A DNA stretch of 57,115 nt from an uncultured Candidatus Saccharibacteria bacterium (lineage in GTDB: Bacteria; Patescibacteriota; Doudnabacteria; UBA920), in contig CAYZEK010000002.1 of NCBI GenBank assembly GCA_964477805.1, positions 1 to 57,115 of the forward strand, written 5' to 3'. A program made the translations under genes and the position numbers. The notes under the pieces were generated by a model. It was not told the DNA's origin. It searched no databases and worked only from the letters and a program-made list of their open reading frames with translations. Below are positions 29,772 through 48,048 of this stretch, one piece after another. Position 1 is the stretch's first letter. Each line of letters starts with the position of its first letter.

Positions 29772-29816
29772 AATTTAATTTATTTTTGTTTGAGTTTCGA
29801 TAGTTATTAATCGTTA

Positions 29817-29833: not shown

Positions 29834-29857
29834 CCCCCATTCAAAGCAAGTCTGGAC

Positions 29858-29886: not shown

Positions 29887-29950
29887 ACTGAGTTGCCTAA
29901 AAAATTAGGTAGCATTCAAAAAAGCTCAACAAATTGGAGGATAAATTTTT

Positions 29951-30622: not shown

Positions 30623-30652
30623 CTAACCAACAACCAAAAGCATGACAATATT

Positions 30653-30682
30653 GGACAGACCACCCACAGGTCTGTCTTTTTT
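30653..30682 (+). terminator. Rho-independent terminator of the 223-aa gene
   Basis: Stem gacagacc/ggtctgtc, then T6. Confidence 0.8.
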
Positions 30683-30685
30683 CAT

Positions 30686-30717
30686 AAAAAAATCGCCCAG
30701 CAGTTGAATGCTGGGCG
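30686..30717 (-). terminator. Rho-independent terminator of the 642-aa gene
   Basis: Stem cgcccagca/tgctgggcg; the minus strand is followed by a T-run. Confidence 0.8.
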
Positions 30718-30753
30718 AAAATATGAAGAATGAAGAATCTGGTTCACGAGGCT

Positions 30754-32682: not shown

Positions 32683-32720
32683 AATACTTCCCCCTTTTTT
32701 TATGTCAAAAAACTAACGAG

Positions 32721-32749
32721 ATAATACCATATTTTGCTGATTTTGTCAA
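32721..32749 (-). promoter_or_regulatory. Promoter of the hydrolase gene: TTGACAAAATC class, 17-nt spacer, TGg-TATTAT
   Basis: Minus strand reads ttgacaaaatcagcaaaatatggtattat; AAGGGGGA Shine-Dalgarno before ATG 32682. Confidence 0.6.
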
Positions 32750-32833
32750 TTTATCTTAATTCCACTTCATAAAAAGAATAAAGAAAAACATTGTCAGATG
32801 TTGCACTTGGGGGTGAAATCCAGTGCTTCGATG

Positions 32834-32862
32834 TTGACAAAATCTTATAAATTTTGTATAAT
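32834..32862 (+). promoter_or_regulatory. Consensus sigma-70-type promoter TTGACA-17-TATAAT (TTGACAAAATC class)
   Basis: ttgacaaaatcttataaattttgtataat; about 137-nt leader to ATG 33006. Confidence 0.7.
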
Positions 32863-33005
32863 ATTGTGTTAAATGCTTTGGGATTATGGCTTGTTTTTTG
32901 CACATACGGTGTGTAAAAAAGGGGTTAAAATCTTAGGAGAATCGTCTTGTCCCCCTAACAAAGACGCCTACACCAAAAAACTTACATTCTACAGGAGGTA
33001 GAATT

Positions 33006-33953
33006 ATGCGTTTACTGAAAATTTCAGGATATGTGTTTGTGCTCTTCATCTTTTTGATGATGAGCATGATCACTAGCTTTGGGCAAGAAACAACCAAAGC
33101 TACAACCGCAACCACGGCCGCCTGCGCCAAAACCGAGTTGCCCACAAGGCAACTACGAACATCCAAGATCGCTAAAGCAAAGCGCGTTAGGCATAAACGC
33201 CCACGCCGTCAAAAAGCAACAGCACAGACGACTCGGGTGATTTATCTGCCCGCACCGACGCCAAAACCGCCAGTTTTAGCAACCAACGCTGATTACAGCG
33301 ACATGGTTGTCAACGCTGGGAACGAAGGAAAACAAACTGGCAAAATCAAACTTGCGAGCGGTAACGATGCAGAAGATGCGGGAACGTATCTGAACGCATT
33401 GGCTAGCCCGAATTTGCAAGCGTGGTTCGCTGGTATGGAATTGCACGTTTTTTCACCCAACGGCGGTGACGGCCGAGTAATCATTTCCGACAAAAACGGC
33501 AAGGTTCTAGATGTCGTTAATGTCTCTGGCGAAAGGCTGGCAACTGTCATAGCGATGGAAAACAACATCGCTGACAACGCCAAATCCAGCGCCGCGACGC
33601 GAGACATGATCTCATCACTTTGGTGGATCGTGCTAGTCGGATTAGCGCTGATCGTGACTTTGTTGATCCTGAGTTACATTAGGCTAAACATCCTCAAAAT
33701 GATCGAGGCTGCAACCTACCAAATTGGAAGCAGGTTAAGTCGGACCAATGAAATGCTGAAGGATCTTCATTCTGAGACGAACAAAATTCGTTATAAGACT
33801 GATGATCTTGCCAGCGACGTTGAGAAGATCATGGCGCACTACGGTATTCATCGTAAGGATCCCAGCCCCATCCAAGCACCAATCGAGACACCCATCATTG
33901 ACGCCGAAGTGGTGGACGACGATGACCCGGACCACCCGGTGGTTGCGGGATAA
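33006..33953 (+). CDS. Hypothetical exported bitopic protein (signal peptide, basic stretch, ectodomain, TM, coiled-coil tail)
   Basis: AGGAGG Shine-Dalgarno 7 nt upstream; signal-like N-terminus; KAKRVRHKRPRRQK stretch; TM WWIVLVGLALIVTLLILSYI; acidic C-terminus. Confidence 0.55.
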   Translation: MRLLKISGYVFVLFIFLMMSMITSFGQETTKATTATTAACAKTELPTRQLRTSKIAKAKRVRHKRPRRQKATAQTTRVIYLPAPTPKPPVLATNADYSDMVVNAGNEGKQTGKIKLASGNDAEDAGTYLNALASPNLQAWFAGMELHVFSPNGGDGRVIISDKNGKVLDVVNVSGERLATVIAMENNIADNAKSSAATRDMISSLWWIVLVGLALIVTLLILSYIRLNILKMIEAATYQIGSRLSRTNEMLKDLHSETNKIRYKTDDLASDVEKIMAHYGIHRKDPSPIQAPIETPIIDAEVVDDDDPDHPVVAG

Positions 33954-34102
33954 AACCTGCAAAAGACTAGCCCATTGCTAGTTTAAGAATTTGGTGAAAC
34001 AGGGTTATTCTGAAGAAGAATATGCACTCCCGGTTGAGCTCCCAGGCCCTTGTTGCTTGGAAGAGCAACAAAGCGGTACAGACAGTAAACGCACCTCAAT
34101 TC

Positions 34103-34142
34103 AAAAAACCCCCTAACACATTTGGTGTTACGGGCGTTTTTT
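34103..34142. terminator. Bidirectional intrinsic terminator
   Basis: A6, then an imperfect stem cccctaacac/gtgttacggg, then T6; serves the 33006 transcript and the minus-strand 34145 gene. Confidence 0.65.
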
Positions 34143-34144
34143 AT

Positions 34145-34477
34145 TTATTTCTTTATTTGTTCAAATCCTGTTTTTAACACCTCCAACTCGCGGGCAATTG
34201 TGATTTGGATTTTAGCGTTTAAACCAGGTATATGAGAGGATAGCTCTTGAACTTTCTGCGACAAAGACACCGGGTCCATTTGCAATGCGTTTTCTAAATC
34301 TCTGGCTTGCTGTTCTGAAATACTATCTAAGAGAGTGTCAATGATTAAATCAGAAAAGTGTTCTGTCATTCCTTGCAACACTTCATGCTTTTGTTCATCG
34401 GAAAGATGCGCCAAGTTAAAATAACTTAACAATTCATCTTGGGATGGAACTAAATCATTTTGTTTGTTTTCTACCAT
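34145..34477 (-). CDS. Hypothetical acidic 110-aa protein
   Basis: ORF 11 nt downstream of the 884-aa gene; no motif recognised. Confidence 0.45.
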   Translation of the reverse strand: MVENKQNDLVPSQDELLSYFNLAHLSDEQKHEVLQGMTEHFSDLIIDTLLDSISEQQARDLENALQMDPVSLSQKVQELSSHIPGLNAKIQITIARELEVLKTGFEQIKK

Positions 34478-34488
34478 GGATTTGGAAA

Positions 34489-37143
34489 TTATAGACCTAA
34501 TTTTTTACGAGAAGTTTTTAAATTAGACTGAGCAATTTTTTCAGCTTTTTTAAAAATATTTATATACCCTTTTGGAATATCTTTGGGTGCTAGCTTTTCT
34601 AGATGTTTAATAATTTTACTAATTCGATCATTATCTACCCCTGGACCTACCTTTTGAGACATCTTGTAAAATGTTTCGTAAATAGAAGCTAATTTTTTTA
34701 CTTCGGGATTATCTAAAGCCGCGTCTGCATCAACTGCGTATTCACTTATTGAACGCAAAGTGTCTTGTATTTTTTTTATATCTTTGGATTTAAACCCTTC
34801 TTTGCTAACTGCACTATTTAGCAAACCACCATCTTGGCGCATCAGGTCAAACCAAATCCCCCTTTGACTCTTTGCTAAGCCTTTTGCCTCCGCTTCTTGA
34901 TATATATCTTCTGGCTTTGTCACTTCTGGTGATTTTTTCTTTGCACCCTTGCGCGATGCTGCGACTGCTACCACTGCTGTATCAACTGCTACATCATTAT
35001 TAGATTCTGCGTCTTCATTTGCGGCTACATCTTCATTCACCTCTGCATCTTCATCAGTTTCTACGTTTGCTGTTGTTTCCACAAGGTCATTTTCTGTTTG
35101 TTCAAGAGATTGATTCTCCGGATCGTGCTTAGCAATTAAATCCTCAAGTTGAGCATCTGCAGTAGCGTTAATTTCACTTAAACTTTTATGTTTTAAATGT
35201 TTTTTAAGTTTATACGCTCCGTAACCTGCTCCAATGCCCAACAACACCTCCACCACATCAACCACACCTGCCCTTGCGTAAGAATCAACAGGCTTTGTAA
35301 TAGCATCGCCAGCTTTTTTTGCAGATTCATCAGCCACAGCCCGCGCAACCTCCTGCTGTGCCTCTATCGTAGCAGAGTCAACAGGTGCTACTTCCACAGG
35401 CTTGGCATGTTCTAGCAACTTTTCAAAAAAGTGATTGCTATCAGACCCAATTTTATCGTTCTTCAGCAAATCCATGCTTTGTTCTGATAACCGATGACCA
35501 GGTGAGTTTAATAATTTCGTTAAATTGGCGATTTTTTCTGGACTGAGTTGATTAGCCTTATCCCATGCGTTTTGGATTTGATCTCCAGTCAGCTCAAACT
35601 TTTGCCCTAATTCCACCACATGCCCAACACCCTTAGTTTGATCCAAAAAATGTTCTTTCATTAAAGTATCTTCAGCAAACACCAATTTAGCTAACTGCTC
35701 TGGACTAAGTTCTGTTGAAGTATCGCCACTTAAATGATTTTTATTTACTAAATAATCATGCAACAGATCTCGAGCAGCATGAGTTGCCCCCTCCCCTTTT
35801 TCTGCCACTGTGATGAATTTTTGTTGCAGTAATTCTTTTTGTAAACTTGCCAAAGATTCATGTGCGTGAGCATTAATAACTTCTTGTTGAAGTGTTCCCA
35901 TTGCGACAGTAGCTTGCTCGGCAACATTTGGGTTGACTTGTAAAATCTTCCCAGTTTTTTCAATGGCCTGTTCAGTAATTTTTTCTGAGCTTTTGTCTCC
36001 TGGCGCCCAACCAAACACTGAACGCACGGAATCGCTATCCAACAAGGCGTGCATACCGTAACCAACCCCACCACCCAATGCGCCAGAAGCAGCCCCAACA
36101 AGAATATTTTTAACTAACTTTGCCTTAAATTGAGGGTTCTTTTGTGTCTCAAACTTTACCTTTTCAGAAAAAAGACGCCCTGATACCAGATTTTTCAAAA
36201 ACTGCCCAGAAGTCTGCCGTTCATTTTTGATACCCTCTAGTTTACGCAAACTTTTACGAGAATCACGAGATTCATGCATTACCGCAAGAAACTTTTTTGC
36301 ATCTGAAAGTTTTTCCAATTTTTCTTTAGATAATTCTAGTCGAAGCAACAACTCTGCTTTTTGCAACTTCACTTTCAACATATTAACCTCTAAGGGTAAT
36401 AGTTTGTCATTCTTAAGTGCCTTGCGACCTTTATCAATTATTTCTGCAATCCTTACTTTGTCATTCCCCTTCAAAGCTTCATCTAATTGTCGCAGTACAT
36501 CATTACTGTCAACTTTTAATCTCTCTTTCCAATAAGTTTCGATAGCTGCGAAACCGCCTCCAATCAATGCGCCAAGACCAATACTCCCACCCAAGCTAGT
36601 CCAACCCAAATATGCTCTCGCAGAGGATTTTACCACACCACGAAGCCCAGCGCCTGCTAAGGCTGGCAAAGTAAATTTTGTTGCAGTGTGTTTTAGAAAA
36701 CCAGCGAGGCGATTTTTAGAAGTCTGTCCTTGCAGTTTTTCGATTAACTCAGCTTTTAGTTTTTTAACAGCTTCCTCACCTCCCTCAAACTCACCTCCCT
36801 CAAACTCTGCCCTGATCTTTTCAAATTCTTCTGCAAAATTTTCATCAATCAACACACTTAACTCATCTACGTTGTTAAGCATGGCTTCGGCAACATCTTC
36901 TGCTTGTTGCTCTACATCTTGTTCTGGTTGTTGCTCTGATTCTTGTTCTACTTCTTGCTCTGCTTGTCGTCCAATTTCTTGTTCTGCTATATCTTCTGAA
37001 TTTTCCTCAATAGCGGTGTCTTGCGTCTCTACCTCCTGAGATTGTTTTTCTTCCTCAACAGCAAATTCAGCAGGGTCCTGTTTTACATCAGTATCATCTG
37101 CCAATTTTTTTTCTTTACCAAAAAACCGTCCAATAAAACTCAT
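34489..37143 (-). CDS. Large hypothetical protein (884 aa): acidic repeat N-terminus and three Gly-rich hydrophobic segments
   Basis: EQEVEQESEQQPEQDVEQQAE and EFEGG x2 repeats; segments GWTSLGGSIGLGALIGGGFAAI, ILVGAASGALGGGVGYGM, VLLGIGAGYGAY. Confidence 0.6.
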   Translation of the reverse strand: MSFIGRFFGKEKKLADDTDVKQDPAEFAVEEEKQSQEVETQDTAIEENSEDIAEQEIGRQAEQEVEQESEQQPEQDVEQQAEDVAEAMLNNVDELSVLIDENFAEEFEKIRAEFEGGEFEGGEEAVKKLKAELIEKLQGQTSKNRLAGFLKHTATKFTLPALAGAGLRGVVKSSARAYLGWTSLGGSIGLGALIGGGFAAIETYWKERLKVDSNDVLRQLDEALKGNDKVRIAEIIDKGRKALKNDKLLPLEVNMLKVKLQKAELLLRLELSKEKLEKLSDAKKFLAVMHESRDSRKSLRKLEGIKNERQTSGQFLKNLVSGRLFSEKVKFETQKNPQFKAKLVKNILVGAASGALGGGVGYGMHALLDSDSVRSVFGWAPGDKSSEKITEQAIEKTGKILQVNPNVAEQATVAMGTLQQEVINAHAHESLASLQKELLQQKFITVAEKGEGATHAARDLLHDYLVNKNHLSGDTSTELSPEQLAKLVFAEDTLMKEHFLDQTKGVGHVVELGQKFELTGDQIQNAWDKANQLSPEKIANLTKLLNSPGHRLSEQSMDLLKNDKIGSDSNHFFEKLLEHAKPVEVAPVDSATIEAQQEVARAVADESAKKAGDAITKPVDSYARAGVVDVVEVLLGIGAGYGAYKLKKHLKHKSLSEINATADAQLEDLIAKHDPENQSLEQTENDLVETTANVETDEDAEVNEDVAANEDAESNNDVAVDTAVVAVAASRKGAKKKSPEVTKPEDIYQEAEAKGLAKSQRGIWFDLMRQDGGLLNSAVSKEGFKSKDIKKIQDTLRSISEYAVDADAALDNPEVKKLASIYETFYKMSQKVGPGVDNDRISKIIKHLEKLAPKDIPKGYINIFKKAEKIAQSNLKTSRKKLGL
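36776..36805 (-). repeat. In-frame 15-nt tandem repeat x2 (EFEGG x2)
   Basis: tcacctccctcaaac x2. Confidence 0.9.
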
Positions 37144-37167
37144 AAATCATGTATTTATATCAATTCT

Positions 37168-37176
37168 ATTGTACCA
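37168..37176 (-). promoter_or_regulatory. Extended -10 element TGGTACAAT upstream of the 884-aa gene
   Basis: Plus-strand attgtacca, about 24 nt upstream of ATG 37143. Confidence 0.45.
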
Positions 37177-37211
37177 CACTTTCAAAAAAACTATGCCCTA
37201 GGGAAATTAAT

Positions 37212-38759
37212 CTACAAAACCCGAAAAATAGCCAGTCCGCCTGCATCAAACCCTAGCTCAAAAAAATCACTATGAACATCATTGGAAAGAAAATTATAAA
37301 TATTTGGGTTTCTAGCTACGTCAACAAAGATAAACTTAGCTCTTAAATCTTGCTTTACCAATTTATGAACAGCTTCGATAGAACCCCAATTCTCAACATT
37401 ATCATCGGCTATCTTCCGCCAATCCCAATACAAATTGGGGTCATAAATGTACATGAAAGTTGGATCTAGCCCCAGCATGTAATAATTTTTGTCATTCCAA
37501 TAAAAGAGTTGCGCCGACTGATCCCATTGCGTGTTTAAAACCAAATCCTTAGGGGCACTGTTTTTTATTAACCAACTAGAGGCATTCTGGTAACGATTAT
37601 TCGCTTCGCCAGATGACAAAGATAAATACACTTTTTGGACATTATAAAAGCCAATTAAAACAACGATGACTACAATCAACATTCCTGCGACTGTAACTTG
37701 CCAAGCAGAGACCATAAGACTTTTACATTTTCCCCATGACAATTGCCGAACATACGGACTTAAAGTAATTGCTGTTGCCAGAACAGTAAACGGCGTCCAA
37801 TACTCAATAAACCGTCGATGCCACAAAGTCAGGACGAAAAAACCAATCGCAATAGTCTGCATCCAAATTGACAGCCAATTCAGTTTGCGATTGAATATTT
37901 TTTTTGCTTCTACCACCAGCGCAATTAACCAACCAGTTAAAACCAAAATATTTGATTCCAAAAACCAATCAAATCTAAACGGCAACCACTCATTGCCAGC
38001 AGGCACTACCCTGCCCGCGCCAAGCCCAGTTTGAAATATTTGATCATATAACAATACTAAAAGATTTTGACTATGTGGATGGATAAGTAACGCAACAACA
38101 ATCCCAAAAATAGAAGAAAGTAATGGCCAAATATCCACTTTCCGTTCTGAGATCATTATTGCCATTGAGTATGCGATCAAAAATAACGGCACACAAACAA
38201 AGCCACCATATGTCCAAGCAAAAATTCCAGACAGAACGCCAATTAGAGCTAATAATTTTTTGTTTTTTTGCTGATGGTATTGATAAGTAATTAAAGTTAT
38301 CAAGCATAGTAAAGCTAGCGAAATAGTGTTGGCTTTCACCACATTAATGCGAAAAATAAAATCAACCGATCCGAGCAATGTTAGCAATAGCCAAAATGGT
38401 TTACCGGGAACCTGCATTTTAGACATCAACAACCAAAAACAAACAAAAAATATTGTACTAAACAGAATGATTGATACAGGTAATAACCCAACTGTATTAA
38501 ATGGCACTAACAACCAATGATATAGATAATGTTGATCTGCGTACCCCTCGCTCCAAGTTGTATAAGCAAGCCATGGAAAAGTATCCCCCAGCCTTCCTTC
38601 TGATACAAGCTGAGAAGCTTTGGCATGATAAAACCCATCTGGATCGGAGAACTTTCCCCAAACAGAAATTTGTAATCCTGTGATTACTAATACTGCTAAT
38701 GCAAGGCTAATCCAAGTTGTTTTGGTCGACTTGATAAATTTTAACATCTGAGTTTTCAT
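37212..38759 (-). CDS. Polytopic membrane protein, GT-C-fold glycosyltransferase-like
   Basis: More than 10 predicted TMs; DPDGFYH acidic motif in the first loop resembles the DxD loop of the ArnT/PMT/STT3-type fold; assignment is weak. Confidence 0.5.
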   Translation of the reverse strand: MKTQMLKFIKSTKTTWISLALAVLVITGLQISVWGKFSDPDGFYHAKASQLVSEGRLGDTFPWLAYTTWSEGYADQHYLYHWLLVPFNTVGLLPVSIILFSTIFFVCFWLLMSKMQVPGKPFWLLLTLLGSVDFIFRINVVKANTISLALLCLITLITYQYHQQKNKKLLALIGVLSGIFAWTYGGFVCVPLFLIAYSMAIMISERKVDIWPLLSSIFGIVVALLIHPHSQNLLVLLYDQIFQTGLGAGRVVPAGNEWLPFRFDWFLESNILVLTGWLIALVVEAKKIFNRKLNWLSIWMQTIAIGFFVLTLWHRRFIEYWTPFTVLATAITLSPYVRQLSWGKCKSLMVSAWQVTVAGMLIVVIVVLIGFYNVQKVYLSLSSGEANNRYQNASSWLIKNSAPKDLVLNTQWDQSAQLFYWNDKNYYMLGLDPTFMYIYDPNLYWDWRKIADDNVENWGSIEAVHKLVKQDLRAKFIFVDVARNPNIYNFLSNDVHSDFFELGFDAGGLAIFRVL

Positions 38760-40305
38760 AAACTACTCTTAAATAATGGCGGGCTGTTGTATCTAAACCA
38801 CCCAATAAACGAACATCGGCATCTTCAAAAATGTAATCAATATCTTCCTGTCTGAGAAAAAACTTCAAAGGGTCGCTGTTATTAATCTTACTGCCAAGCA
38901 TCCCTGTTACTATCTCAGATTTAAGACCATAATCCAAAGTCTGATCACCAGTACCCACAAACACCTTCCGCCCTGCAATTCCAGGGATAATATTACTGGA
39001 AACAAGACTAGAAATCACAATACTCTTAGGCTCAGTGTTATGTTTCAACCAGATTGCTCCAGCATAAATGCCCTCGTCTAAATAAAATGGTGGTTCTCCT
39101 GCTTTAAAAAATTGCATATCCTGATAAAGACGCCACACATTAGTCAATGCGAGCAAACTAATCAAACTCAAAACGACGAAATGCTTTAGCAATTTATTTT
39201 TCAATCCTGATTCTTGCAAAAACCAAACCAATCCCATAGAGGCTAAAATCGCTATGGGAATATGCAACCCCTCACTAAACTTCCTCTGAAATCTGACAAG
39301 TAACGGGAAGTAAAGTAAAAAAGGTATTACTAATATCCAGATCAACAGGAAAAGAATTCTTTGGATATCTTTGTTTATACTCATATTGCTAATGCCGACA
39401 AAAGCAAAGACTAACAAAAACCCATAACCAGACAAAAAATAATACCATGCATACGATGGGACATTAGTTTGTATTGTAGCCCAAACCCCTAACACAGGAT
39501 TAATATTTAGGATATTCACCTGCCATAAAGCAAAAGGCAAAACTAGTATGATCAGATACAAATAATTTCTGAGCCAAAAATAATTTTTCGTCTTAAATGT
39601 TTGTACCAACACATATACGAATAATACTGATGTCACAATAGCCAAATCATATGGGTGTATGATTACCAATACCCCTAATAACAACGCAGGAAGCAAAACA
39701 ACCATCCTCCGTGAGGAGTGAAATAAATTTGTAGATATATGGAAAATTAATAAAATTAAAGTTAGCGAAATAAGATTAAGTGGCGACATATACAAACTTA
39801 AAAATGTGTTTGATTCTACCATCCACATATCAGTAGACAATGGAGACAAAAACAGACCCACTCCAGACGAAACAATTGTAATTACAAAAGTCAACTGCCT
39901 TGCGGTAACATTTTTTATAAAATCAGAGATAAACAAATACAGACTGGACAAAAAAAGCATGCCGACGAACATTTTCCCAACATGATAAATCACAATATTA
40001 GACAAAGTACTGAAATGCCCCAAAACTCCTAAAACATAAAAAAATGGATGAAAAAATAAAGCTGATTGAAGCTCAGTACTATACAGATTTACAAAGAAAA
40101 AATTTCCTTGCCTAGCTTGTTCAAACCATGCTAAGTAAGTATAAGTATCATAGTGACTAATAGTCGTCATCCCTGTAAAAAAACTTCCAGCAGGTGTGTG
40201 TAACCACCCATACAGATACGGTAGATTGATAAGACTAACAAACAAAACTGATACAACGACGACCCAGACCCATTCACTTCTACTAATTTTTTCTAGAGAA
40301 ATCAT
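38707..40305 (-). CDS. Polytopic membrane protein with C-terminal soluble domain, GT-C-like
   Basis: More than 10 predicted TMs; HYDTYTYLAWFEQ loop after TM1; about 130-aa C-terminal non-membrane domain; overlaps the next gene by 53 nt. Confidence 0.5.
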   Translation of the reverse strand: MISLEKISRSEWVWVVVVSVLFVSLINLPYLYGWLHTPAGSFFTGMTTISHYDTYTYLAWFEQARQGNFFFVNLYSTELQSALFFHPFFYVLGVLGHFSTLSNIVIYHVGKMFVGMLFLSSLYLFISDFIKNVTARQLTFVITIVSSGVGLFLSPLSTDMWMVESNTFLSLYMSPLNLISLTLILLIFHISTNLFHSSRRMVVLLPALLLGVLVIIHPYDLAIVTSVLFVYVLVQTFKTKNYFWLRNYLYLIILVLPFALWQVNILNINPVLGVWATIQTNVPSYAWYYFLSGYGFLLVFAFVGISNMSINKDIQRILFLLIWILVIPFLLYFPLLVRFQRKFSEGLHIPIAILASMGLVWFLQESGLKNKLLKHFVVLSLISLLALTNVWRLYQDMQFFKAGEPPFYLDEGIYAGAIWLKHNTEPKSIVISSLVSSNIIPGIAGRKVFVGTGDQTLDYGLKSEIVTGMLGSKINNSDPLKFFLRQEDIDYIFEDADVRLLGGLDTTARHYLRVVYENSDVKIYQVDQNNLD

Positions 40306-40327
40306 GACCTAATCATATCACAGAGAC

Positions 40328-40365
40328 AAAAAAACAGAGTCGATCCTTTTTGGAATCGACTCTGT
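40328..40365 (-). terminator. Rho-independent terminator ending the three-gene operon
   Basis: 11-bp stem acagagtcgat/atcgactctgt; the minus strand is followed by T7. Confidence 0.85.
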
Positions 40366-40379
40366 AAACTCTGAACATT

Positions 40380-41906
40380 TCAGCTAATCCTCCTTGTTCG
40401 AACAGTAAACGCACCATCACCCTGATAACCTTTTAAGCTATCAATGGTGCGGTACGTAATCTCGCCACTTTCTGTAGCTACGATACGTTGTGGTCCGCAA
40501 ATCAAAAATCTTTTACTCGACTTTGAACCGATCCACATTTCTAACCCACCCACATTTTTAGCGAATGGACTGTCAACTGCCGTATCTGCATAACCAGTAG
40601 TTTCTCCGCATGAGCCAACAACTGGTCCATCCGACCGCGCTTGTACTGTCCCCGAAGGTTCGACTTCCACGACATCTCCTTTGTTAACACTAAAGGTCTG
40701 TACTCCTGTCGAATTCTTCTGCGGGACACGCACCACAGACTCTTTAACGGCGCTCGCCTTTATTGGCGCGGGCGCCGTCGGAACAGCTGAAGCGGTTGGC
40801 GAGTGCGAATTGCTTGGGCTAGAATTCAGACTTTGATCTGAAGCAGAAGCAAACGGATTCTTGCCATCGTTTAAGTCCTTTGAGAACTTATTGATCGCCT
40901 CGTTCTTTTGAGCGAAGTTCACAATAGGCCCTAAGGTTAACAGACCGATAAAAAGTACCGTCCCTGCAAAAGCGACAACACCCCAACGTAATTCAAAGGC
41001 GTCTTTACCGGCGTCTTCATCAGTTGCCTTACCCTTCTTCAAGGAAACACCACTAAAAGCAATAGCAGCTACCAAAATGAAGAATAAACCCCAGATCAAC
41101 AGACCGGTGTTGTCGTCCGCCCCCCAATTTACCCTTGCCAAGAGTTTATAAAACCCAAGGTGGTAAATTAAGATCGCAGCGACAAGATACATCAGAAATG
41201 TCTGGACTTTTTCCAGCCAAAATGGTGGTCGTTTCCAGCCATAGATCATGAAGAATAGCCCAGCGATGCAGAGCAAAGCAATGATTAAACTCCCCAGATC
41301 ATGGCTCAGCCACTTCATGGTTAGCAATATAACATTGATCACCATGACATAAGCAAGAAACGCCATAATCCCAAACAGCAATTCTTTCGCCTTTGCCTCA
41401 AAAGCTTTTTCTTCTCGTGCTTCTTTCAAATCACTCAAGAATTTTTCTTCCTTATCAAAAGCCTCTCCGACTAAGTCTGGAATTGCCACCGCTGCAAGAT
41501 GAGCCACAACATTTATTGCGCTCAACACAACCCTTTCAATGCCTGCAACGACACCAGTGACAACCCCAACCTTCGTCGTTACGAGGAGGTAGTACGCCAC
41601 TGATACCAACATCAGAACCAACGGCACCAGGCGGAAGCCATAGTACCCTTCGGTGCAAACGCCGGTATTTGCGTCGCAAAAAGTCCGCGTTGTAACGACT
41701 AACGCTACCAACGCAATCAAATTAACTACCAGCGCAAAGCGCAGTAGTGTCCAGGTTTCAAGAAAATGCTTCGCCCCTTTAGACCAAGTCCAAATGGCAG
41801 CATTCTCAACCTCCAACACTCCCCACTTTATGATGGTTTCCACATGGTCCATAGCATCTGTACCAGAACCCTTCGACGACACCTTACCCTTACCCTTACT
41901 TGCCAT
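40380..41906 (-). CDS. 8-TM membrane protein with a C-terminal beta domain resembling PA-IL/LecA-type lectins
   Basis: GAGGAG Shine-Dalgarno. The last 118 aa (40383-40736) show the pattern GDVVEV..G......GP..G....GGLEMWIG....G.ITY.....GY.GDGAF.V, comparable by eye to LecA. Confidence 0.55.
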   Translation of the reverse strand: MASKGKGKVSSKGSGTDAMDHVETIIKWGVLEVENAAIWTWSKGAKHFLETWTLLRFALVVNLIALVALVVTTRTFCDANTGVCTEGYYGFRLVPLVLMLVSVAYYLLVTTKVGVVTGVVAGIERVVLSAINVVAHLAAVAIPDLVGEAFDKEEKFLSDLKEAREEKAFEAKAKELLFGIMAFLAYVMVINVILLTMKWLSHDLGSLIIALLCIAGLFFMIYGWKRPPFWLEKVQTFLMYLVAAILIYHLGFYKLLARVNWGADDNTGLLIWGLFFILVAAIAFSGVSLKKGKATDEDAGKDAFELRWGVVAFAGTVLFIGLLTLGPIVNFAQKNEAINKFSKDLNDGKNPFASASDQSLNSSPSNSHSPTASAVPTAPAPIKASAVKESVVRVPQKNSTGVQTFSVNKGDVVEVEPSGTVQARSDGPVVGSCGETTGYADTAVDSPFAKNVGGLEMWIGSKSSKRFLICGPQRIVATESGEITYRTIDSLKGYQGDGAFTVRTRRIS

Positions 41907-41917
41907 TTTTTTCTCCT

Positions 41918-42604
41918 CTAGAATATCCTAAACCCTAAAATCAGGGCTATGGTTGGGTGACGATCACGCCAAGTTGCTGGTGCAACTGACTGAACCGATT
42001 GAGCTTGTTGAAGCTTCTTGACCCGTAAACGAGCCCTACGCTCTTTCTGCAATACGCGATCACGCAGCTCCGCGTACTTCGCCATAATCTCCAAAGGTGT
42101 TATTAACCCTTGAATAGCCATTTCCAGCTGAGACGGATCAAATATGCCCATCCCATCAAGCGAGTCCATTACTTCCTTCTGCGTGCGCAAGTTGGCCAAA
42201 AAAGCCAACAGCATCAAACGATGCTTGCGATCACGCTCCGAGACATAGGCTTGCCGGAACTTCGCCTTATGCTTAGGCGAAAGTTGCTTGAAAACATTGA
42301 GCAACCAAAAACCTTTACGATCTTCAATTATCTCACTGTCCACGAGGCTTGCGATGTCGCAACCAAGCCTCATCTCATCCTTCATTCCAAAGGATGTTTC
42401 CCACGCCCCAAGGGCTTCATCCAAGGCCTCAGTCTGTTTGCCCTCTCGCATCAATGTTTCAATGCGATCAGCAGTCTTTCGCTCTTCCGGAGAAGAGCCT
42501 TTGCCCTTGAAAAATTTGGTTACATACCCCAAAACCTGCGAAGCGTCCAAAGCGACGTCCGCGATTTCGAACAGGTCCCTTAATCCTACAAAGCCTACTG
42601 CCAT
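41918..42604 (-). CDS. Hypothetical helical 228-aa protein
   Basis: GAGGTG Shine-Dalgarno; Arg/Lys-rich coiled segment near the C-terminus; no motif recognised. Confidence 0.5.
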   Translation of the reverse strand: MAVGFVGLRDLFEIADVALDASQVLGYVTKFFKGKGSSPEERKTADRIETLMREGKQTEALDEALGAWETSFGMKDEMRLGCDIASLVDSEIIEDRKGFWLLNVFKQLSPKHKAKFRQAYVSERDRKHRLMLLAFLANLRTQKEVMDSLDGMGIFDPSQLEMAIQGLITPLEIMAKYAELRDRVLQKERRARLRVKKLQQAQSVQSVAPATWRDRHPTIALILGFRIF

Positions 42605-42612
42605 AATTCACC

Positions 42613-43347
42613 TCAAAATTCCTTCCGCAATCTTTTGATTACGGGTTTGTTAGCTAAGTACAAAAAAGAAATTTGTACATCGCTAATTGCCTTTGACCTA
42701 ACAAGCAGGAGCAAACCTTTAACAGGAATGACAAGCTTGTGCTTCTTTACCGCTCTAGCAATTTCTGCATCACTTTCATAATCAGACAGTGATACATTCT
42801 TGTTGGCGGTGAAAAAAACTTCCCCAGCAACAGAATTACCTTTTTTGTCCAAACACTGAACTCGGAAAGGATAGTCAATACCGCGAGCGGTAATAACTCG
42901 ATCCTCTTCTCCGAGCAATGTCTCGACGACCAAAGGGTCTTTCTTGGCAGAAGACCCAACTTTACCAGCCCCGCCAATACCATGAACTTCTTGCAAAGCT
43001 TTTAGCTCTGCTTTGTTAAAGTCCTTTTTGACCCTGGCGCCATGTGGAGCCACTACACTAATTGTGGTGCAGTTCGCTGGTAAGCTTTCGATCAAAACTT
43101 CAGATGTGGCCATACCGTTGCTTTGCGTAAACAAATCAAAGGCGAGTCCATCTTTGTCTAACAATCCCTCGAGCGGAAGCTCAGCCGGATTGCGCTTATT
43201 CCCAGCAAACGCAAATAACTTAGCATCGTTCGTAGCAATATTATTCTCATAATAATGCGCAGTGACGTGCAAAGATTTGTTGTCTGCTCCAAACGAAATA
43301 AACAAGTCAATCTTCTCGGAAACACGACTCGTTTTTGCTATGCTCAT
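42613..43347 (-). CDS. Hypothetical beta-rich 244-aa protein, first gene of the operon
   Basis: AGGAGGG Shine-Dalgarno 8 nt upstream of the ATG; no TM; no motif recognised. Confidence 0.55.
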   Translation of the reverse strand: MSIAKTSRVSEKIDLFISFGADNKSLHVTAHYYENNIATNDAKLFAFAGNKRNPAELPLEGLLDKDGLAFDLFTQSNGMATSEVLIESLPANCTTISVVAPHGARVKKDFNKAELKALQEVHGIGGAGKVGSSAKKDPLVVETLLGEEDRVITARGIDYPFRVQCLDKKGNSVAGEVFFTANKNVSLSDYESDAEIARAVKKHKLVIPVKGLLLLVRSKAISDVQISFLYLANKPVIKRLRKEF

Positions 43348-43476: not shown

Positions 43477-43505
43477 ATTATATCAGATTTCAATGATTTT
43501 GTCAA
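43477..43505 (-). promoter_or_regulatory. Consensus promoter TTGACA-17-TATAAT with TGa extension (TTGACAAAATC class)
   Basis: Minus strand reads ttgacaaaatcattgaaatctgatataat; about 120-nt leader to ATG 43347. Confidence 0.7.
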
Positions 43506-43516
43506 GCATGGTTGCT

Positions 43517-43543
43517 CAAAAAAACCTCATAGATAAGAGGTTT
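43517..43543 (-). terminator. Rho-independent terminator after the ATPase gene
   Basis: Stem aaacctc/gaggttt; the minus strand is followed by a T-run; 25 nt past the stop. Confidence 0.75.
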
Positions 43544-43567: not shown

Positions 43568-46114
43568 TTAGAGCGTCTTCTCTGTCGCACCCTTCCCTGC
43601 CGACATCATGTCAGCCACTCGACTAGCTGTGAGTATTTCCTCTTCCACCTCTAGGCGAGACCGGCCGAATTTTAGCCTAGAAAGCTGCCTGATAGCAGAC
43701 GCTGTACTAGCTTGCTCAGCTGTTGGTTTTAATAACGGATATGTTGCCATATTAAATGGCTTGCTTGCTGTTCCGTTAATCATCAATTTTACAAAGGCAT
43801 TAAATCGGTCAACATTTAGCAAATCAAACTCATTAAACACTGGTGCAAATTCCTTTGCCATTGTTTCCGCATCCTCAACCCCAATCCGAAAACTTATCAT
43901 TGAACCAGCGTTACCAAATACTGCATCGCGCAAATCACTACTCCCTGCTCCATGAGCTCCAGCGCCTTGCGCTAATTGTGCCAAAAACTGATGACCGATA
44001 ATCAAGTTCAATCTATATTTACGTGCCTCACTCAAAATACTGGAAAATGCATCGGTGATAAAGTTTTGGAACTCATCGACATACAAATAAAAGTCTCGGC
44101 GCTGATCTTCAGGAATATCTGCGCGTGACATTGCTGCCATCTGAATTTTGCTTACCAGTATCAACCCGAGTAATTTCGCATTCATTTCTCCGACTTTACC
44201 TTTAGCCAAATTTACTAGCAAGATTTTACCGTTGTCCATGATCTCACGGAAGTTAAAGGAACTTTTACTTTGTCCGACAATGTTTCGCATGGTTGCATTT
44301 TCAACGAATCGTCCCACCTTAGAAACTAAATAACCAAGCATTTCAGATTTATGAAAGTCCGAGGTTTTTGCCATCTCTTTTTCCCAAAATGCCCGCACCA
44401 CCGGATCAGTCACTTTCCCAATTTTATATTTCTGAAATTCAGTATCGGTAAAAATTCTCGGGATATCCACAATAGTACCAGGGTGTTCATTATCTGCCAT
44501 TAACGTGAGCATTGCGTTACGCATATTATGTTCGAACATTGGTCCGAGCATAGCAGGATCTGTAACCAATTTATAAAAAATTGAAATCATTTCTTGTACA
44601 GCAAAATCTTTTTGGTCTTCCGAAAATACTTCCAACATATTTAACCCCATAGGTCTTTCTACGTCAAACGGTTCAAACAAAATGACATCTTCAGCTCGAT
44701 TTTTTGGAATGTGGGGCAAGATGTCTTCAATATAATCACCATGTGGATCAATTACACACAACCCTTCGCCATTTTGAATATCCTGAACAGACATATATTT
44801 CATCAACTCAGTTTTACCAACACCAGTGCGACCCAAAATATACATGTGGCGACGACGATCATCACGACTGGCATGAATTTTTGTTTCTACACCCCGATAG
44901 ATATTACGACCTAACAACACCCCGTCAGTTGGGGTATTTACAGGCGCTGGAGCTTTCTTAGATTGTAACCATTTGATATTAGGGGTTTCCAAAAATGGCG
45001 TTGGCAAGTGCCATAGACTAGCCAATTCTTCGGTATTCAAAATTGTCTTTCGGCCATAACGTCGGTAAATCCGAAACATAAAATCTTTAGCGATATCCCC
45101 AGCCTTACGTTTCTTTACTTTGAAACCATTGAATGGAGGCATGTTGTATTGCAAAAATGAAGACACAATATTACTCAAATTCACAGATGCAACCCCAGGC
45201 TGAGTTGATGAAGCAATAATTCGAATATTAGTTCTAAACCCTGGACGACTAGCTTTTTCTTCAAAGCGCTTAACCATCTCCTGTTGCATTGGCGTCAAAT
45301 TGATTGGGCTGTTCAAGCCAGACAAGTCCTTATGTGCATCTGTTGGTGTTGCCTTACCCAATACTCCATCTCTCACCATACCAAATGTCTCACCAGCCAT
45401 CCGAGCCCCTACACCTTTTACAACAGTGTTAGGGTTTTTCCCTTGTTGAATTTCTAAAGCCATATGATGTGGTTTATTTTGCCAATGATGCCCCGCTGGA
45501 TATAAAATAAACTGAATGGCCGCACCTTCATCCTGACCCAACTTTGACATTGCATTTGTCAAAGAATTTAGAGGATCAGTTTCCATATTTTTGTAAGTCC
45601 GAATTGGAAACATATATGGGCGATTCACTTGTAATTCAGCAGCCGCAATTTGCCCGCCTTTTTGAAATGGGTTATAACCATGCACGATATCAATATGAGC
45701 GTGCGGATATTGTGCCTGTAATTGCTTCTCAACCAACCCGCGGAGATGATTGGGACAATTGATGTAAAAAGAAATCTTCTTATCAGTACAAGCTATCTCA
45801 AAACTGAGATAATCTTTCGGTTGAAAAAACCAATTACTGTGACTTATTTCTGATAAAGATGTAAACAACTGTTCTGCAACTGCAATGAGATTCTTTTTTG
45901 ACTCTTCATTATTTTGAACATTGGCATTCTTATCATCTGAACCTTCTTTAGGCATTTGCACTTCTAAAAATACCCAGTTTTTTGTGCGGGGTAAAATAAT
46001 TCTGGAATAATACCAATGCCGGTGAATATAATATATTAAAAACGCCAAAAAGACCGTTATAAGAACGGTCAATAAGATGCTAGTAAGAACAATTGTACTT
46101 AATTCAAACGGCAT
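43568..46114 (-). CDS. Membrane-anchored FtsK/HerA-superfamily P-loop ATPase, type IV secretion coupling-protein-like (VirD4/TraD/TraG type)
   Basis: N-terminal TM; about 390-aa unassigned domain; Walker A GRTGVGKT (44810-44833); VIDPHGDY; Walker B FYLYVDEFQNF (44060-44089); ARKYRLNLIIGHQFLAQL and GNAGSMISFRIG..DAE typical of the coupling-protein C-terminal module. Confidence 0.78.
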   Translation of the reverse strand: MPFELSTIVLTSILLTVLITVFLAFLIYYIHRHWYYSRIILPRTKNWVFLEVQMPKEGSDDKNANVQNNEESKKNLIAVAEQLFTSLSEISHSNWFFQPKDYLSFEIACTDKKISFYINCPNHLRGLVEKQLQAQYPHAHIDIVHGYNPFQKGGQIAAAELQVNRPYMFPIRTYKNMETDPLNSLTNAMSKLGQDEGAAIQFILYPAGHHWQNKPHHMALEIQQGKNPNTVVKGVGARMAGETFGMVRDGVLGKATPTDAHKDLSGLNSPINLTPMQQEMVKRFEEKASRPGFRTNIRIIASSTQPGVASVNLSNIVSSFLQYNMPPFNGFKVKKRKAGDIAKDFMFRIYRRYGRKTILNTEELASLWHLPTPFLETPNIKWLQSKKAPAPVNTPTDGVLLGRNIYRGVETKIHASRDDRRRHMYILGRTGVGKTELMKYMSVQDIQNGEGLCVIDPHGDYIEDILPHIPKNRAEDVILFEPFDVERPMGLNMLEVFSEDQKDFAVQEMISIFYKLVTDPAMLGPMFEHNMRNAMLTLMADNEHPGTIVDIPRIFTDTEFQKYKIGKVTDPVVRAFWEKEMAKTSDFHKSEMLGYLVSKVGRFVENATMRNIVGQSKSSFNFREIMDNGKILLVNLAKGKVGEMNAKLLGLILVSKIQMAAMSRADIPEDQRRDFYLYVDEFQNFITDAFSSILSEARKYRLNLIIGHQFLAQLAQGAGAHGAGSSDLRDAVFGNAGSMISFRIGVEDAETMAKEFAPVFNEFDLLNVDRFNAFVKLMINGTASKPFNMATYPLLKPTAEQASTASAIRQLSRLKFGRSRLEVEEEILTASRVADMMSAGKGATEKTL

Positions 46115-46119
46115 TTGAT

Positions 46120-46512
46120 TTAAAGGTTATCAGGAGTTTGTGATACTCCCAAACCCAGTTCCTGCATATCATGCAAATCAACTGAGTTATCACCATTTAA
46201 AAAACTTAAAAGTGTTTCTTGAATTTCTTGAGTCTTTGCCAGCGCAACTTCTGGGGGTATTGATTTTTGAGCTTGTTCTGTGGTCGGCACCTCAAAAGCA
46301 GACACTCCCTCTGTTTGCCCGAGCTTGTCCACCTCATCAAATTTCGTACTGCCTAAATATTGTAGCTCTTTTTGATCACTGAATAACTCTGAATTTGGTT
46401 CAGTAAATTCTGATATATTTCCTGAGGCATTCTTTAAAATCTCTTCCGAGCCACCATGCTCCAACTGTTGTGTACGATGAATTTTAGCTCCTATTTCTTT
46501 TTCTTGGGGCAT
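46120..46512 (-). CDS. Hypothetical acidic 130-aa protein co-transcribed with the ATPase
   Basis: Stop lies 5 nt before the ATPase ATG; low-complexity and acidic; no motif recognised. Confidence 0.45.
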   Translation of the reverse strand: MPQEKEIGAKIHRTQQLEHGGSEEILKNASGNISEFTEPNSELFSDQKELQYLGSTKFDEVDKLGQTEGVSAFEVPTTEQAQKSIPPEVALAKTQEIQETLLSFLNGDNSVDLHDMQELGLGVSQTPDNL

Positions 46513-46549: not shown

Positions 46550-46566
46550 AAACTATTATACCACAT
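46550..46566. repeat. Right copy of the perfect 17-bp direct repeat, aaactattataccacat
   Basis: Identical to 29817-29833; contains the TGGTATAAT element (46555-46563) upstream of ATG 46512. Confidence 0.9.
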
Positions 46567-46691
46567 TCATCCGATTTTAGGCAAAATAAAAAACCCAAGA
46601 CATTTTCTTATCAGATAGGTCATGAAATCTGCTCCGCAAATCCATACCTAATAGTTTCAAAAGAAATAATGTTCTGAGTTTTTAACAATGT

Positions 46692-47972
46692 CTAGTAACC
46701 TTGATAGTCATGCATTGTGAGTTGAGCCTCAACTTGTTTAATAGTTTCAATGACAACGGAAACTACAATCAATAATCCAGTACCGCCCAAAGTTAAAGCC
46801 CGAGTACCAGTCCAAGCTTGCACAATAAACGGTAGCACGGCAATTAGCCCAAGAAATAATGCGCCTGGTAAAGTAATGCGATTTAACACTTTGTGAAGAT
46901 AATTAGCTGTTTGTTGCCCTGGTCGTAGACCTGGAACAAAACCACCGTTGCGTTGCATATTTTCAGAAATATCATCAGGATTAATCACAATATTGGTATA
47001 AAAATAAGCAAATGCAATCACTAAAACAAAGTATACTGCGCCATACCACAAACCTTGAGTGTTAGTAAAATCAATTACTTTTTGAGCCCATTCTGCTAAA
47101 AAAGCTGACTTGGCACTCAAGAAAAATTGAGCAATAATAGCAGGAAATAACATCAACGATAGCGCAAAAATAATTGGGATTACACCTGCCTGATTAAGTC
47201 GCATTGGCAAGAACGAATCAACTCCCCCAACCTGTCTATCCCCACGTTGACGTTTGGCATAGGATACTGGAACATTGCGCTGTGCTTCTGTTACTAACAC
47301 CACCCCTGCCACAACAGCGATAATCGCTGCTGCAAAACCAATGATCATTGGTAGTTTACTTGGATCATAAAGCTGAATCAAAGACTGTATACTACTTGGC
47401 AACTTAGCCACAATACCAGCAAAGATAATCAAAGAAACACCATTGCCAATTCCATATTCAGAAATAATTTCTCCAATCCACATAATCAACAAACTACCAG
47501 CTGTTACTGCTAACAAAGTTAAAAACCACTGGAATGGGCTAAACACTCCTAGAATTTCTGCACCGCCCTGACTTTGTAATAAACGAATGGTCCCAAAACC
47601 AGACAATACTGCCAAAGGAATAGTCATGAATCTGGTATATTGGTTAATTTTGGTACGCCCCGCTTCTCCACTTTCTTTCTGGAGTTCTTTTAAAGACGGA
47701 ACTACCATTACCAACAATTGCATAATGATTGAAGCGGTGATATACGGCCCAACCCCCAGCATCGCTATAGAGAAGTTAGTCAACCCACCTCCAGAAAAAA
47801 CATCTAACAGATTTAAAAACTGGTTAGCTTGAAAGAAGTTTTGTAATCCAGATACATTTATTCCCGGAATTGGTATATGTACCAAAATACGAGTTGCTAC
47901 TAGCAACAATAATACTGCGCCAATTTTCCAGCGAAGGTCTTTAGTTTTCCAAATAAGCGATAATGTATTCAT
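46692..47972 (-). CDS. secY: Preprotein translocase subunit SecY
   Basis: DLRWKIGAVLLLLVATRILVHIPIPGI, GVGPYITASII and 10-TM layout. The track start at 48005 is GTG; the first ATG is at 47972. Confidence 0.93.
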   Translation of the reverse strand: MNTLSLIWKTKDLRWKIGAVLLLLVATRILVHIPIPGINVSGLQNFFQANQFLNLLDVFSGGGLTNFSIAMLGVGPYITASIIMQLLVMVVPSLKELQKESGEAGRTKINQYTRFMTIPLAVLSGFGTIRLLQSQGGAEILGVFSPFQWFLTLLAVTAGSLLIMWIGEIISEYGIGNGVSLIIFAGIVAKLPSSIQSLIQLYDPSKLPMIIGFAAAIIAVVAGVVLVTEAQRNVPVSYAKRQRGDRQVGGVDSFLPMRLNQAGVIPIIFALSLMLFPAIIAQFFLSAKSAFLAEWAQKVIDFTNTQGLWYGAVYFVLVIAFAYFYTNIVINPDDISENMQRNGGFVPGLRPGQQTANYLHKVLNRITLPGALFLGLIAVLPFIVQAWTGTRALTLGGTGLLIVVSVVIETIKQVEAQLTMHDYQGY

Positions 47973-48048
47973 GTGATGTGATTTTATTACAAGTGTATTA
48001 TACACGAAAAAAGCAAAGCGCGCATTTCCGCGCGCCCAATAGCAATCG

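Follow-up and report, generated by a model that had tools for sequence, protein, structure and literature searches.

A coupling-protein-like ATPase with a predicted VirB4-like N-terminal domain and an acidic partner: a candidate for the chromosomal type IV secretion system in Patescibacteria

What would an ATPase that resembles type IV coupling proteins (T4CPs) do in a core chromosomal region with no secretion genes around it? This question is raised by a gene pair in contig CAYZEK010000002.1, from an uncultured bacterium of the Patescibacteria (the candidate phyla radiation or CPR). We analysed a stretch of 57,115 nucleotides (nt) of this contig, which we call the window. Its minus strand encodes an 848-amino-acid (aa) membrane-anchored ATPase (43568..46114), which we identified from its open reading frame (ORF), profile matches, and predicted structure. 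On the same strand, and 5 nt upstream of the ATPase, is a 130-aa acidic ORF (46120..46512). A first-pass annotation, made from the sequence alone, had described the ATPase as an orphan with an unassigned N-terminal half. We propose that it is the essential, membrane-anchored ring ATPase that couples or energises the chromosomal type IV secretion system (T4SS) of Patescibacteria, and that the acidic protein is its regulator or adaptor. We put the probability of this reading at roughly 50%.

In the mechanism that we have in mind, the two genes would form one operon on the core chromosome of this Patescibacteria bacterium. The ATPase would form a ring-shaped, ATP-driven translocation motor at the membrane, and its VirB4-like N-terminal domain may dock it onto inner-membrane parts of the T4SS (VirB3-, VirB6-, or VirB8-like) that are encoded elsewhere in the genome. 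It would then fill the coupling or energising role for which no ATPase was recognised when the essential T4SS cluster of Patescibacteria was described in print. The acidic protein would bind the ATPase via its C-terminal module and act as a regulator or adaptor, by a logic like that of CagZ on Cagbeta or of the acidic adaptors of DotL. A large part of bacterial diversity falls within the Patescibacteria, which live attached to other microbes. In the one species tested, their T4SS genes are essential, yet that system had so far lacked an assigned coupling ATPase.

The two halves of the ATPase

The C-terminal half looks like a VirD4/TraD/TrwB-type motor, as the first-pass annotation had suggested. 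PF10412 (TrwB_AAD_bind) scores 39.2 bits over aa 417-724 (cutoff 20.5) and PF02534 (T4SS-DNA_transf) scores 25.1 (cutoff 20.1), while the VirB4 ATPase profiles (CagE_TrbE_VirB, AAA_10, P-loop_TraG, and TIGR00929) gave no Pfam match on this protein. TrwB is the best match in the PDB by sequence (3e-7) and also by fold. When we compared a full-length structural model (mean predicted local distance difference test score or pLDDT of 85.7), the best match of the C-terminal half was TrwB (TMt 0.62-0.65, E ~1e-13, 16% identity), with Cagbeta next at 0.55; TrwK, which is the VirB4 of plasmid R388, aligned over ~950 columns. A profile of 41 diverse family members matches TrwB and DotL and does not reach VirB4 (TrwK) at E <= 0.1. 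The T4CP models in NCBIfam match 41/41 of these members and the VirB4 models match only 14-21/41, with all scores far below the curated cutoffs. For the window ATPase, the only VirB4-type NCBIfam match is to VirB4_plasma (9e-4 over 45 residues), and CD1115, a T4CP model, scores 35 against a cutoff of 250.

The nucleotide-binding domain spans aa ~399-795 (43730..44920, minus strand). Inside it are Walker A (44810-44833) and Walker B (44060-44077). All five of the motifs that had been quoted for this protein are in the ORF: GRTGVGKT (aa 428-435), VIDPHGDY (454-461), DEFQNF (680-685), RKYRLNLIIGHQFLAQL (698-714), and GNAGSMISFRIG (734-745). The Walker A lysine (K434), the Walker B Asp-Glu (D680 and E681), and two other motor residues (Q709 and Q713) are invariant in the 41 diverse members. 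Between the two Walker motifs, predicted helices make up an all-helical insertion at aa ~499-627 (44234..44620, minus strand). They fall within the alignments to TrwB_AAD_bind and TrwB, at the position of the all-alpha domain of TrwB.

At the other end of the protein, hydropathy and the structural model agree on a single transmembrane (TM) helix at aa 8-30 (46025..46093, minus strand). As the earlier annotation had it, there is just one: aa 8-26 (Kyte-Doolittle hydropathy 2.8) is the only strongly hydrophobic stretch of the protein. In the model, aa 3-45 form one long helix. An N-terminal hydrophobic segment is present in 39/41 family members. Because basic residues trail the TM helix, the positive-inside rule implies that the rest of the ATPase should be cytoplasmic.

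Between the anchor and the motor lie roughly 390 residues that had been described as free of motifs. They contain a recognised Pfam domain: a precomputed annotation of an identical protein places DUF8128 (PF26449) here, at aa ~46-395 (44930..45979, minus strand). Our local copy of Pfam does not detect DUF8128 in the window ATPase, and searches with the N-terminal domain sequence against PDB sequences and local Pfam found nothing; only the comparison of folds was informative. An AlphaFold (AF2) model of the N-terminal domain, which was built from an alignment of 43 diverse sequences, has a pLDDT of 89 and a predicted template modelling score (pTM) of 0.85. When we searched the PDB with Foldseek, the top 14 matches were all TrwK/VirB4 chains of plasmid R388 (E 1e-6 to 6e-4, TM-score ~0.4). 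The next match was at E 0.018, and nothing else was significant. TrwB, HerA, and FtsK share the ATPase fold of VirB4 and are absent from these matches, so we infer that the match must be to the N-terminal domain that is specific to VirB4. By its modelled fold, then, DUF8128 is like the N-terminal domain of VirB4. In R388, the VirB4 N-terminal domains touch the membrane, VirB3, and VirB8 (reviewed in PMC12857230).

The protein is thus predicted to consist of a single TM helix, followed by a VirB4-type N-terminal domain and then a VirD4-type motor. The VirB4-type domain ahead of the motor explains why Walker A is in the middle of the protein, which had been remarked on as unlike classical VirD4. 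The window ATPase shares with TrwB, VirD4, and TraD a nucleotide-binding domain with a helical insertion and an N-terminal membrane anchor. However, its anchor has a single TM helix where theirs has two, a VirB4-like domain of ~350 aa separates anchor from motor, and its scores fall far below every curated T4CP cutoff in NCBIfam (58 bits against 366 for SXT_TraD). Its gene also differs from theirs: it belongs to the core chromosome, is inherited vertically, and has neither a relaxase gene nor T4SS genes in its vicinity. It resembles VirB4 (TrwK of R388) in having a ~400-aa N-terminal domain followed by a C-terminal ATPase, with a Walker A in mid-protein, but the motor is nearer to the T4CPs by hidden Markov models, by family profile, and by fold, and TM-scores to TrwK are 0.3-0.4. 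Furthermore, VirB4 relies on a separate VirB3 where the window ATPase has its own TM helix, and Patescibacteria have a separate, canonical VirB4. The hybrid is a compact case for asking how the VirB4 and VirD4 architectures relate to each other.

We considered two other identities for the ATPase and rejected both. It has no match to PF01580 and only one TM segment, which does not fit FtsK/SpoIIIE. As for the helicase HerA, the match to DUF87 is confined to aa 408-472, the NCBIfam HerA model scores 17.5 against a cutoff of 970, and there is no NurA-like neighbour.

Relatives of the ATPase are also found in phages. It matches phrog_5156 over its full length (E 4.9e-88), and it has matches to proteins of 49 phage records; phages of Bacillus and relatives account for nearly all of these, and about 20 of the alignments include the N-terminal domain. 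In phage G (L093, 87772-93336; loci from other genomes carry our L numbers), gp153 is TrbL/VirB6-like, gp154 is a small ORF, gp155 is VirB4-like, and gp156 is the homologue. Together, gp153-gp156 look like a minimal type-IV-secretion inner-membrane module. (GenBank describes gp155 as "VirB-like" and gp156 as "MsbA-like".) The C-terminus of gp155 is of the VirB4 type by Pfam, with matches to P-loop_TraG and AAA_10. When we compared the modelled N-terminal domain to a library of viral structures, it matched both gp156 (E 2e-20) and the VirB4-like gp155 (E 2e-7). In the Geobacillus phage TP-84 (L092, 30267-32806), the homologue follows a small membrane protein with a sub-threshold match to VirB2 pilins. 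These phage contexts tie the ATPase family to inner-membrane components of type IV secretion. The phrog_5156 proteins are homologous to the window ATPase over the full length, including the N-terminal domain (gp156 has a tblastn E-value of 3e-41, besides the fold match above). They differ from it in being phage-borne, in early regions, and only 19-24% identical (phage G gp156 and the 754-aa protein of TP-84). Also, the phage genes sit next to VirB4-, VirB6-, or VirB2-like genes, and we saw no acidic partner upstream of them. Another phage protein that we considered, gp32 of SPP1, is described as TrwB/VirB4/FtsK-like and non-essential (PMC6316719); it was not recovered by tblastn at E <= 1e-3, and we do not count it as a homologue.

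Could the pair be a remnant of a conjugative or mobilisable element, of a prophage, or of an anti-phage defence system that is built around a HerA- or T4CP-like ATPase? The full-length match to phrog_5156 and the Bacillus-phage homologues would fit, as would matches of the ATPase core to PADLOC mad8 (1.6e-15) and to HerA, and the genes just downstream, which are strain-specific and have no known function. But the identity to the phage proteins is low, and the mad8 and HerA matches span only the P-loop core, with no PADLOC matches for the neighbouring ORFs. The locus lies between core genes in at least six related genomes, and the identity of the ATPase between genomes tracks that of SecY and ribosomal protein S5. 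We found no integrase, relaxase, repeats, or defence partners, and the GC content is normal. Given the synteny, the conservation, and the missing partner genes, we consider a mobile or defence origin to be highly improbable.

The family, its two subfamilies, and the essential pair of S. epibionticum

Far from being an orphan, the ATPase belongs to a very large and vertically inherited core family of Patescibacteria. A database search returned over 5,400 homologues, and the best 120 of these are all full-length (~850 aa) and 70-100% identical, with a precomputed architecture of PF26449 (DUF8128), PF10412, and PF01935. The protein that is identical to the window ATPase carries these three domains and PF02534. 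The N-terminal 410 residues alone gave 2,199 clusters at 50% identity. DUF8128 is always N-terminal, with a T4CP-like ATPase behind it wherever we checked. In a scan with one genome per species, at least 600 species genomes carry the gene.

Among the matches listed, we looked at 80 loci whose ATPases are 40-70% identical to that of the window. Going by the titles of the records, some of which seem to be mislabelled, the CPR lineages among them are Magasanik-, Uhr-, Falkow-, Berkel-, Staskawicz-, Peregrini-, Davies-, Curtiss-, Levy-, Woese-, Moran-, and Gracilibacteria. L006, L012, L015, L016, L024, L028, L042, L045, L046, and others are titled as uncultured Gammaproteobacteria, Bdellovibrionales, or Methylomirabilota; these contigs are probably mislabelled or mis-binned metagenome-assembled genomes.

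Between the window and five close relatives, the ATPase is 71-87% identical, which is similar to SecY (68-89%), S5 (68-92%), and L15 (63-86%), and the motor half is 80-92% identical. As far as sequence identity can indicate, this is the constraint that is typical of housekeeping genes. The locus of the pair is inherited along with the ribosomal operon in these related genomes. The family is already on record, though uncharacterised: Quinonero-Coronel et al. (2025) surveyed 3,035 Patescibacteria genomes and counted 5,713 "T4CP homologues", spread over 2,918 of them (PMC12102498). In the same genomes, VirB4 is found in 2,417, and only 148 of the 5,713 T4CP homologues are near virB4. With its DUF8128 domain, its TrwB-like ATPase domain, its full-length homology, and a small same-strand ORF upstream, the window gene is an ordinary member of this known family.

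By reciprocal scores, the full-length family splits into two subfamilies. Subfamily A is the type that is found in the window, and its members are mostly 800-860 aa; members of subfamily B are mostly 920-1,130 aa. The window ATPase scores 691 bits against the type-A protein L088_806 and 498 bits against type B. All 80 of the listed loci are type A. The existence of two subfamilies fits the published figure of about two T4CP homologues per genome. One locus (L088) has three tightly coupled genes, which encode a 102-aa acidic ORF and two DUF8128 ATPases of 806 and 994 aa. In five loci, a type-B gene lies downstream of the type-A gene on the same strand, either adjacent (L027, L068, and L088) or within 2-3 kb (L031 and L047). 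Such direct or close downstream placement of B suggests that the paralogues are able to act jointly. In the window, only an A copy is present: we found no second DUF8128/T4CP-like ATPase in its entire length.

The split matters for genetic data. A T4CP homologue of Patescibacteria has been described in the literature as dispensable, and in S. epibionticum no recognisable coupling protein was reported for the T4SS cluster, which is itself essential (Wang et al. 2023). In that study's transposon sequencing (Tn-seq) data, SEML1_0293 (921 aa, with PF10412 at aa 402-719, downstream of rpoS) is non-essential. SEML1_0142 (1,019 aa, its P-loop domain beginning near aa 381) is classified as ES/ES/ES; and SEML1_0141, a 139-aa hypothetical protein whose gene ends 12 nt before SEML1_0142, is GD/ES/ES, with no transposon insertions (PMC10633639).

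We used synteny to match these genes to the subfamilies, and not annotation names, as PGAP names vary within a single subfamily. In the type-B locus L089, a sigma-70 gene precedes the ATPase at a distance similar to that before SEML1_0293. In the type-A locus L090, the order is Mg-chelatase (reverse) ... a 145-aa ORF (forward), 11 nt, the ATPase (forward), two reverse genes, and then GyrB and GyrA (both forward). This matches SEML1_0138 to SEML1_0145 in order, orientation, and approximate sizes; L091 is similar. Given this synteny and the subfamily assignment, the window pair would correspond to SEML1_0141/0142, which both scored as essential. The dispensable gene would belong to subfamily B, and we infer that the published dispensability of the T4CP homologue would apply to that subfamily. 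Like the window pair, SEML1_0141/0142 have a small ORF just upstream of a T4CP-like ATPase, but SEML1_0142 is longer, with a C-terminal extension, and its neighbours are gyrBA instead of secY. Together with the fold of the N-terminal domain and the phage contexts, these data make the type-A ATPase a concrete, testable candidate for the ATPase that this essential secretion system seemed to lack.

The same ATPase could instead have been exapted for a housekeeping function that does not involve the T4SS, pumping DNA or another polymer either on its own or via some other channel. Examples would be FtsK/SpoIIIE-like chromosome segregation at division, or DNA uptake or export, with the acidic partner as a DNA-mimicking gate or regulator. 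We view this alternative as possible but doubtful. T4CPs belong to the FtsK/HerA superfamily of DNA pumps, and we did see matches to HerA and to FtsK-type proteins, but the window ATPase has no FtsK gamma domain and no match to FtsK_SpoIIIE in Pfam. Its own TM anchor would suit an independent pump, although one TM helix per subunit would probably not suffice to build a channel by itself. The housekeeping level of conservation and the stable synteny with ribosomal and secY genes, or with gyrBA, also fit a role outside of secretion. So does the survey by Quinonero-Coronel et al., who raised exaptation as a possibility: T4CP homologues are in 96% of the genomes, as compared to 80% for VirB4, and are almost never near virB4 (PMC12102498). 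Against this, the VirB4-type N-terminal domain serves for docking to the T4SS in the one case that has been solved (PMC12857230), and the phage relatives are linked to VirB4-, VirB6-, and VirB2-like genes. For DNA uptake in particular, S. epibionticum can do without comEC-dependent competence but not without the presumed orthologue of the ATPase, which argues against a pure uptake role.

Several points do weigh against our proposal of a coupling or energising ATPase for the T4SS. There is no T4SS gene within the 57-kb window. The counts from the survey (2,918 of 3,035 genomes with T4CP homologues versus 2,417 with VirB4, and 148 of 5,713 homologues near virB4; PMC12102498) imply that many genomes may have the ATPase without a T4SS. 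The likeness of the N-terminal domain to VirB4 is structural only, from a model, at a TM-score of ~0.4, and we found no link at the sequence level. Orthology to SEML1_0141/0142 is based on synteny with a published gene table, not on a direct comparison of sequences, and SEML1_0141 could appear essential simply because insertions in it have polar effects on SEML1_0142. Finally, the partner families of different lineages (described below) have no mutual homology that is detectable in their sequences.

The acidic upstream partner

The 130-aa ORF (46120..46512, minus strand) encodes a protein with an isoelectric point (pI) of 4.34, a net charge of -15, and no TM segment. Judging from its composition, it is probably mostly disordered, with a short amphipathic segment at the C-terminus (EIQETLLSFLNGD). 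The close coupling to the ATPase gene and the acidity that had been reported for it both hold up. It has just one match in the database, at 98% identity, and nothing in Pfam, NCBIfam, PADLOC, or PHROG (local copies).

Is this ORF conserved, or is it spurious? What is conserved is its place, size, and charge, not its sequence. All five close relatives and L007 have a same-strand ORF of 118-132 aa just upstream of the ATPase. The pI is 4.1-4.8 in the five relatives and near neutral (6.3) in L007. The 130-aa protein is only 12-24% identical to these positional equivalents, which is no better than for shuffled sequences (14.5 +/- 5%). There are a few colinear BLAST matches among the upstream ORFs at E of ~0.01-0.1, which hint at very remote homology. 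If we consider open frames, then 7/7 close relatives have one of 118-146 codons on the same strand upstream of the ATPase. Shuffled intervals reach that length, in any frame, in just 0.4-1.3% of cases per locus, so the upstream ORF seems to be maintained by selection. By these comparisons, the partner's sequence drifts at least ten times faster than that of the ATPase. Selection seems to act on the length, the charge, and a short C-terminal helical module rather than on the sequence.

Similar ORFs are found across the phylum. In 63 of 78 type-A loci, a same-strand ORF of 80-210 aa lies upstream of the ATPase, and the gap is 40 nt or less in 45 of these. The N-terminal 60% of the ORF is net negative in 56/63, with many residues of the disorder-promoting kind, and hydrophobicity is higher in the C-terminal part. 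BLAST clustering places the ORFs in at least six unrelated groups, none with a Pfam family, and hhalign found no link across lineages (probabilities of 0.3 or less between groups). Each group has a well-conserved C-terminal helical module that is specific to the lineage. The clusters include c1 (L008-L057), c2 (L029-L074), c3 (L037-L073), and L090/L091. Examples of the C-terminal modules, none of which are in our local Pfam, are ...WLKxIPGVNKFFLEQEAKIKTDKI, ...KGVxxAVxVAKKMNDPYILDxLHD, and DDVDVIEKxWxxKAKQIxxETxDDPRAQE. The recurring design appears to be an acidic disordered arm with a short, lineage-specific docking module, and we suggest that the C-terminal module binds the ATPase.

We consider it quite improbable that the 130-aa ORF is not a functional partner, that is, a spurious or tolerated frame, or an unrelated and fast-evolving gene in the leader of the operon. 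The lack of sequence conservation (identities at the level of shuffles), the single database match, and the lack of hhalign links across lineages would be expected for such a frame, and there is no Shine-Dalgarno sequence upstream of it. Relative to the 98%-identical strain, the ORF has three differences (1 synonymous and 2 non-synonymous), which are too few to estimate dN/dS. However, the frame is kept in 7/7 relatives even though the DNA has diverged beyond alignment, and the positional equivalents are acidic (except in L007) and have tight gaps to the ATPase. The recurrence of such ORFs in 63/78 loci, the conservation of the C-terminal modules within lineages, and the absence of insertions in SEML1_0141 all point to a functional protein.

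T4CPs with small regulating or adapting proteins are known: Cagbeta with CagZ, from H. pylori, and DotL with IcmS/W (IcmSW). But CagZ and IcmS/W have folded structures, and we could detect no similarity between them and the mostly disordered acidic partner, so the analogy is at most functional. We also considered whether the 130-aa protein might be VirB3. The size and position fit, but the protein has no hydrophobic segment and is strongly acidic, so we rejected this.

A broader interpretation, which is speculative and which we think is rather unlikely in full, is that the subfamily-A ATPases and their acidic disordered partners are a previously unrecognised, essential, and phylum-wide translocation module. 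The hybrid might be what actually couples or energises the Patescibacteria T4SS, or it might pump on its own; its polyanionic partner might be a nucleic-acid mimic that gates the ring or is threaded through it; and the Bacillus-phage relatives might represent this module within a minimal type-IV-like apparatus carried by phages. In the papers available to us, we found no mention of the hybrid architecture, of a division into A and B, of the recurring disordered partner, of the tie to the essential pair, or of the phage relatives.

Genomic setting and neighbouring genes

The window is part of the core chromosome of a small-genome bacterium. Its genes include a ribosomal-protein operon, secY, dnaX, htrA, ruvX, genes for glycolysis and the pentose phosphate pathway, mreB, and recJ. 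Nearly all of the genes are on one strand, and the GC content is uniform overall. We found no tRNA or Rfam features across the window. There is no relaxase or VirB4 among the window ORFs that we scanned, as the first-pass annotation had noted, and linkage of the ATPase to relaxase or T4SS genes is absent from the five close relatives as well.

The pair was thought to have its own promoter and terminator, and both sites are present, although at the level of consensus only. The 179-nt gap between the end of secY and the pair holds a sigma-70-like promoter (46555..46584, minus strand; TTGCCT-18-TATAAT with an upstream TG), which has 10/12 matches to the consensus; this call is a consensus match only, and promoter-like sites in the region are no more numerous than in shuffles. 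Beginning 25 nt past the stop codon of the ATPase, there is a terminator-like hairpin (43516..43543, minus strand; AAACCUC-8 nt-GAGGUUU and then a U-run). Its folding energy is -10.2 kcal/mol (z of -2.34), but a scan with a terminator consensus did not flag it. The promoter-like site and the hairpin make it plausible, by consensus, that the ATPase and the acidic ORF are a separate two-gene transcription unit.

Just beyond the hairpin is a perfect sigma-70 promoter for the next gene, a 244-aa ORF (43477-43505, minus strand; TTGACA-17-TATAAT with TG, 12/12 matches), along with a strong ribosome-binding site (AGGAGG).

The gene directly upstream of the pair is secY (46692-47972/48005). The mechanically called ORF starts with GTG at 48005 (437 aa), and an internal ATG at 47972 fits the 425-426 aa of SecY in relatives. 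Whether the pair stays next to secY in relatives had been raised as a question: this holds within the close lineage only, and the adjacency is a lineage-specific synteny rather than a feature of the family. Even within the lineage it is not strict, because L002 has genes inserted between secY and the pair. These are an insertion-sequence-like pair (a DDE_3 transposase and a helix-turn-helix protein, 8343-9390) and NUDIX, HAD, and zincin genes. Sec genes are near family members in three lineages: secY in the window (46692-48005), and secDF in L088 (8493-10723) and L089 (1006-3230). We considered a functional tie to the Sec genes, but they are found at only 9 of 91 loci, 7 of which are from one lineage, so we treat this as a coincidence.

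Downstream of the pair, the 244- and 228-aa ORFs (region 40380-43347) recur, among the loci that we fetched, only in the near-identical strain L086. These two ORFs and a 508-aa ORF with multiple TM segments have no match in the relatives L001-L005, nor in local Pfam, NCBIfam, PADLOC, or PHROG. They belong to a ~14-kb block (29118-43347) of ORFs of 217 to 884 aa that have no matches in Pfam, PHROG, or PADLOC. The block is patchily shared: the 642-, 532-, 515-, 884+110-, and 217-aa ORFs recur in some relatives. The 532- and 515-aa ORFs (37212-40305), which have no known family, overlap by 53 nt and are neighbours again in L004. GC content is 0.44-0.47 at 30-34 kb and 40-44 kb, compared to a background of 0.38-0.41. 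The block may be a variable surface-protein or accessory region. Elsewhere in the window, transketolase is split into separate N- and C-terminal ORFs (18198-20106).

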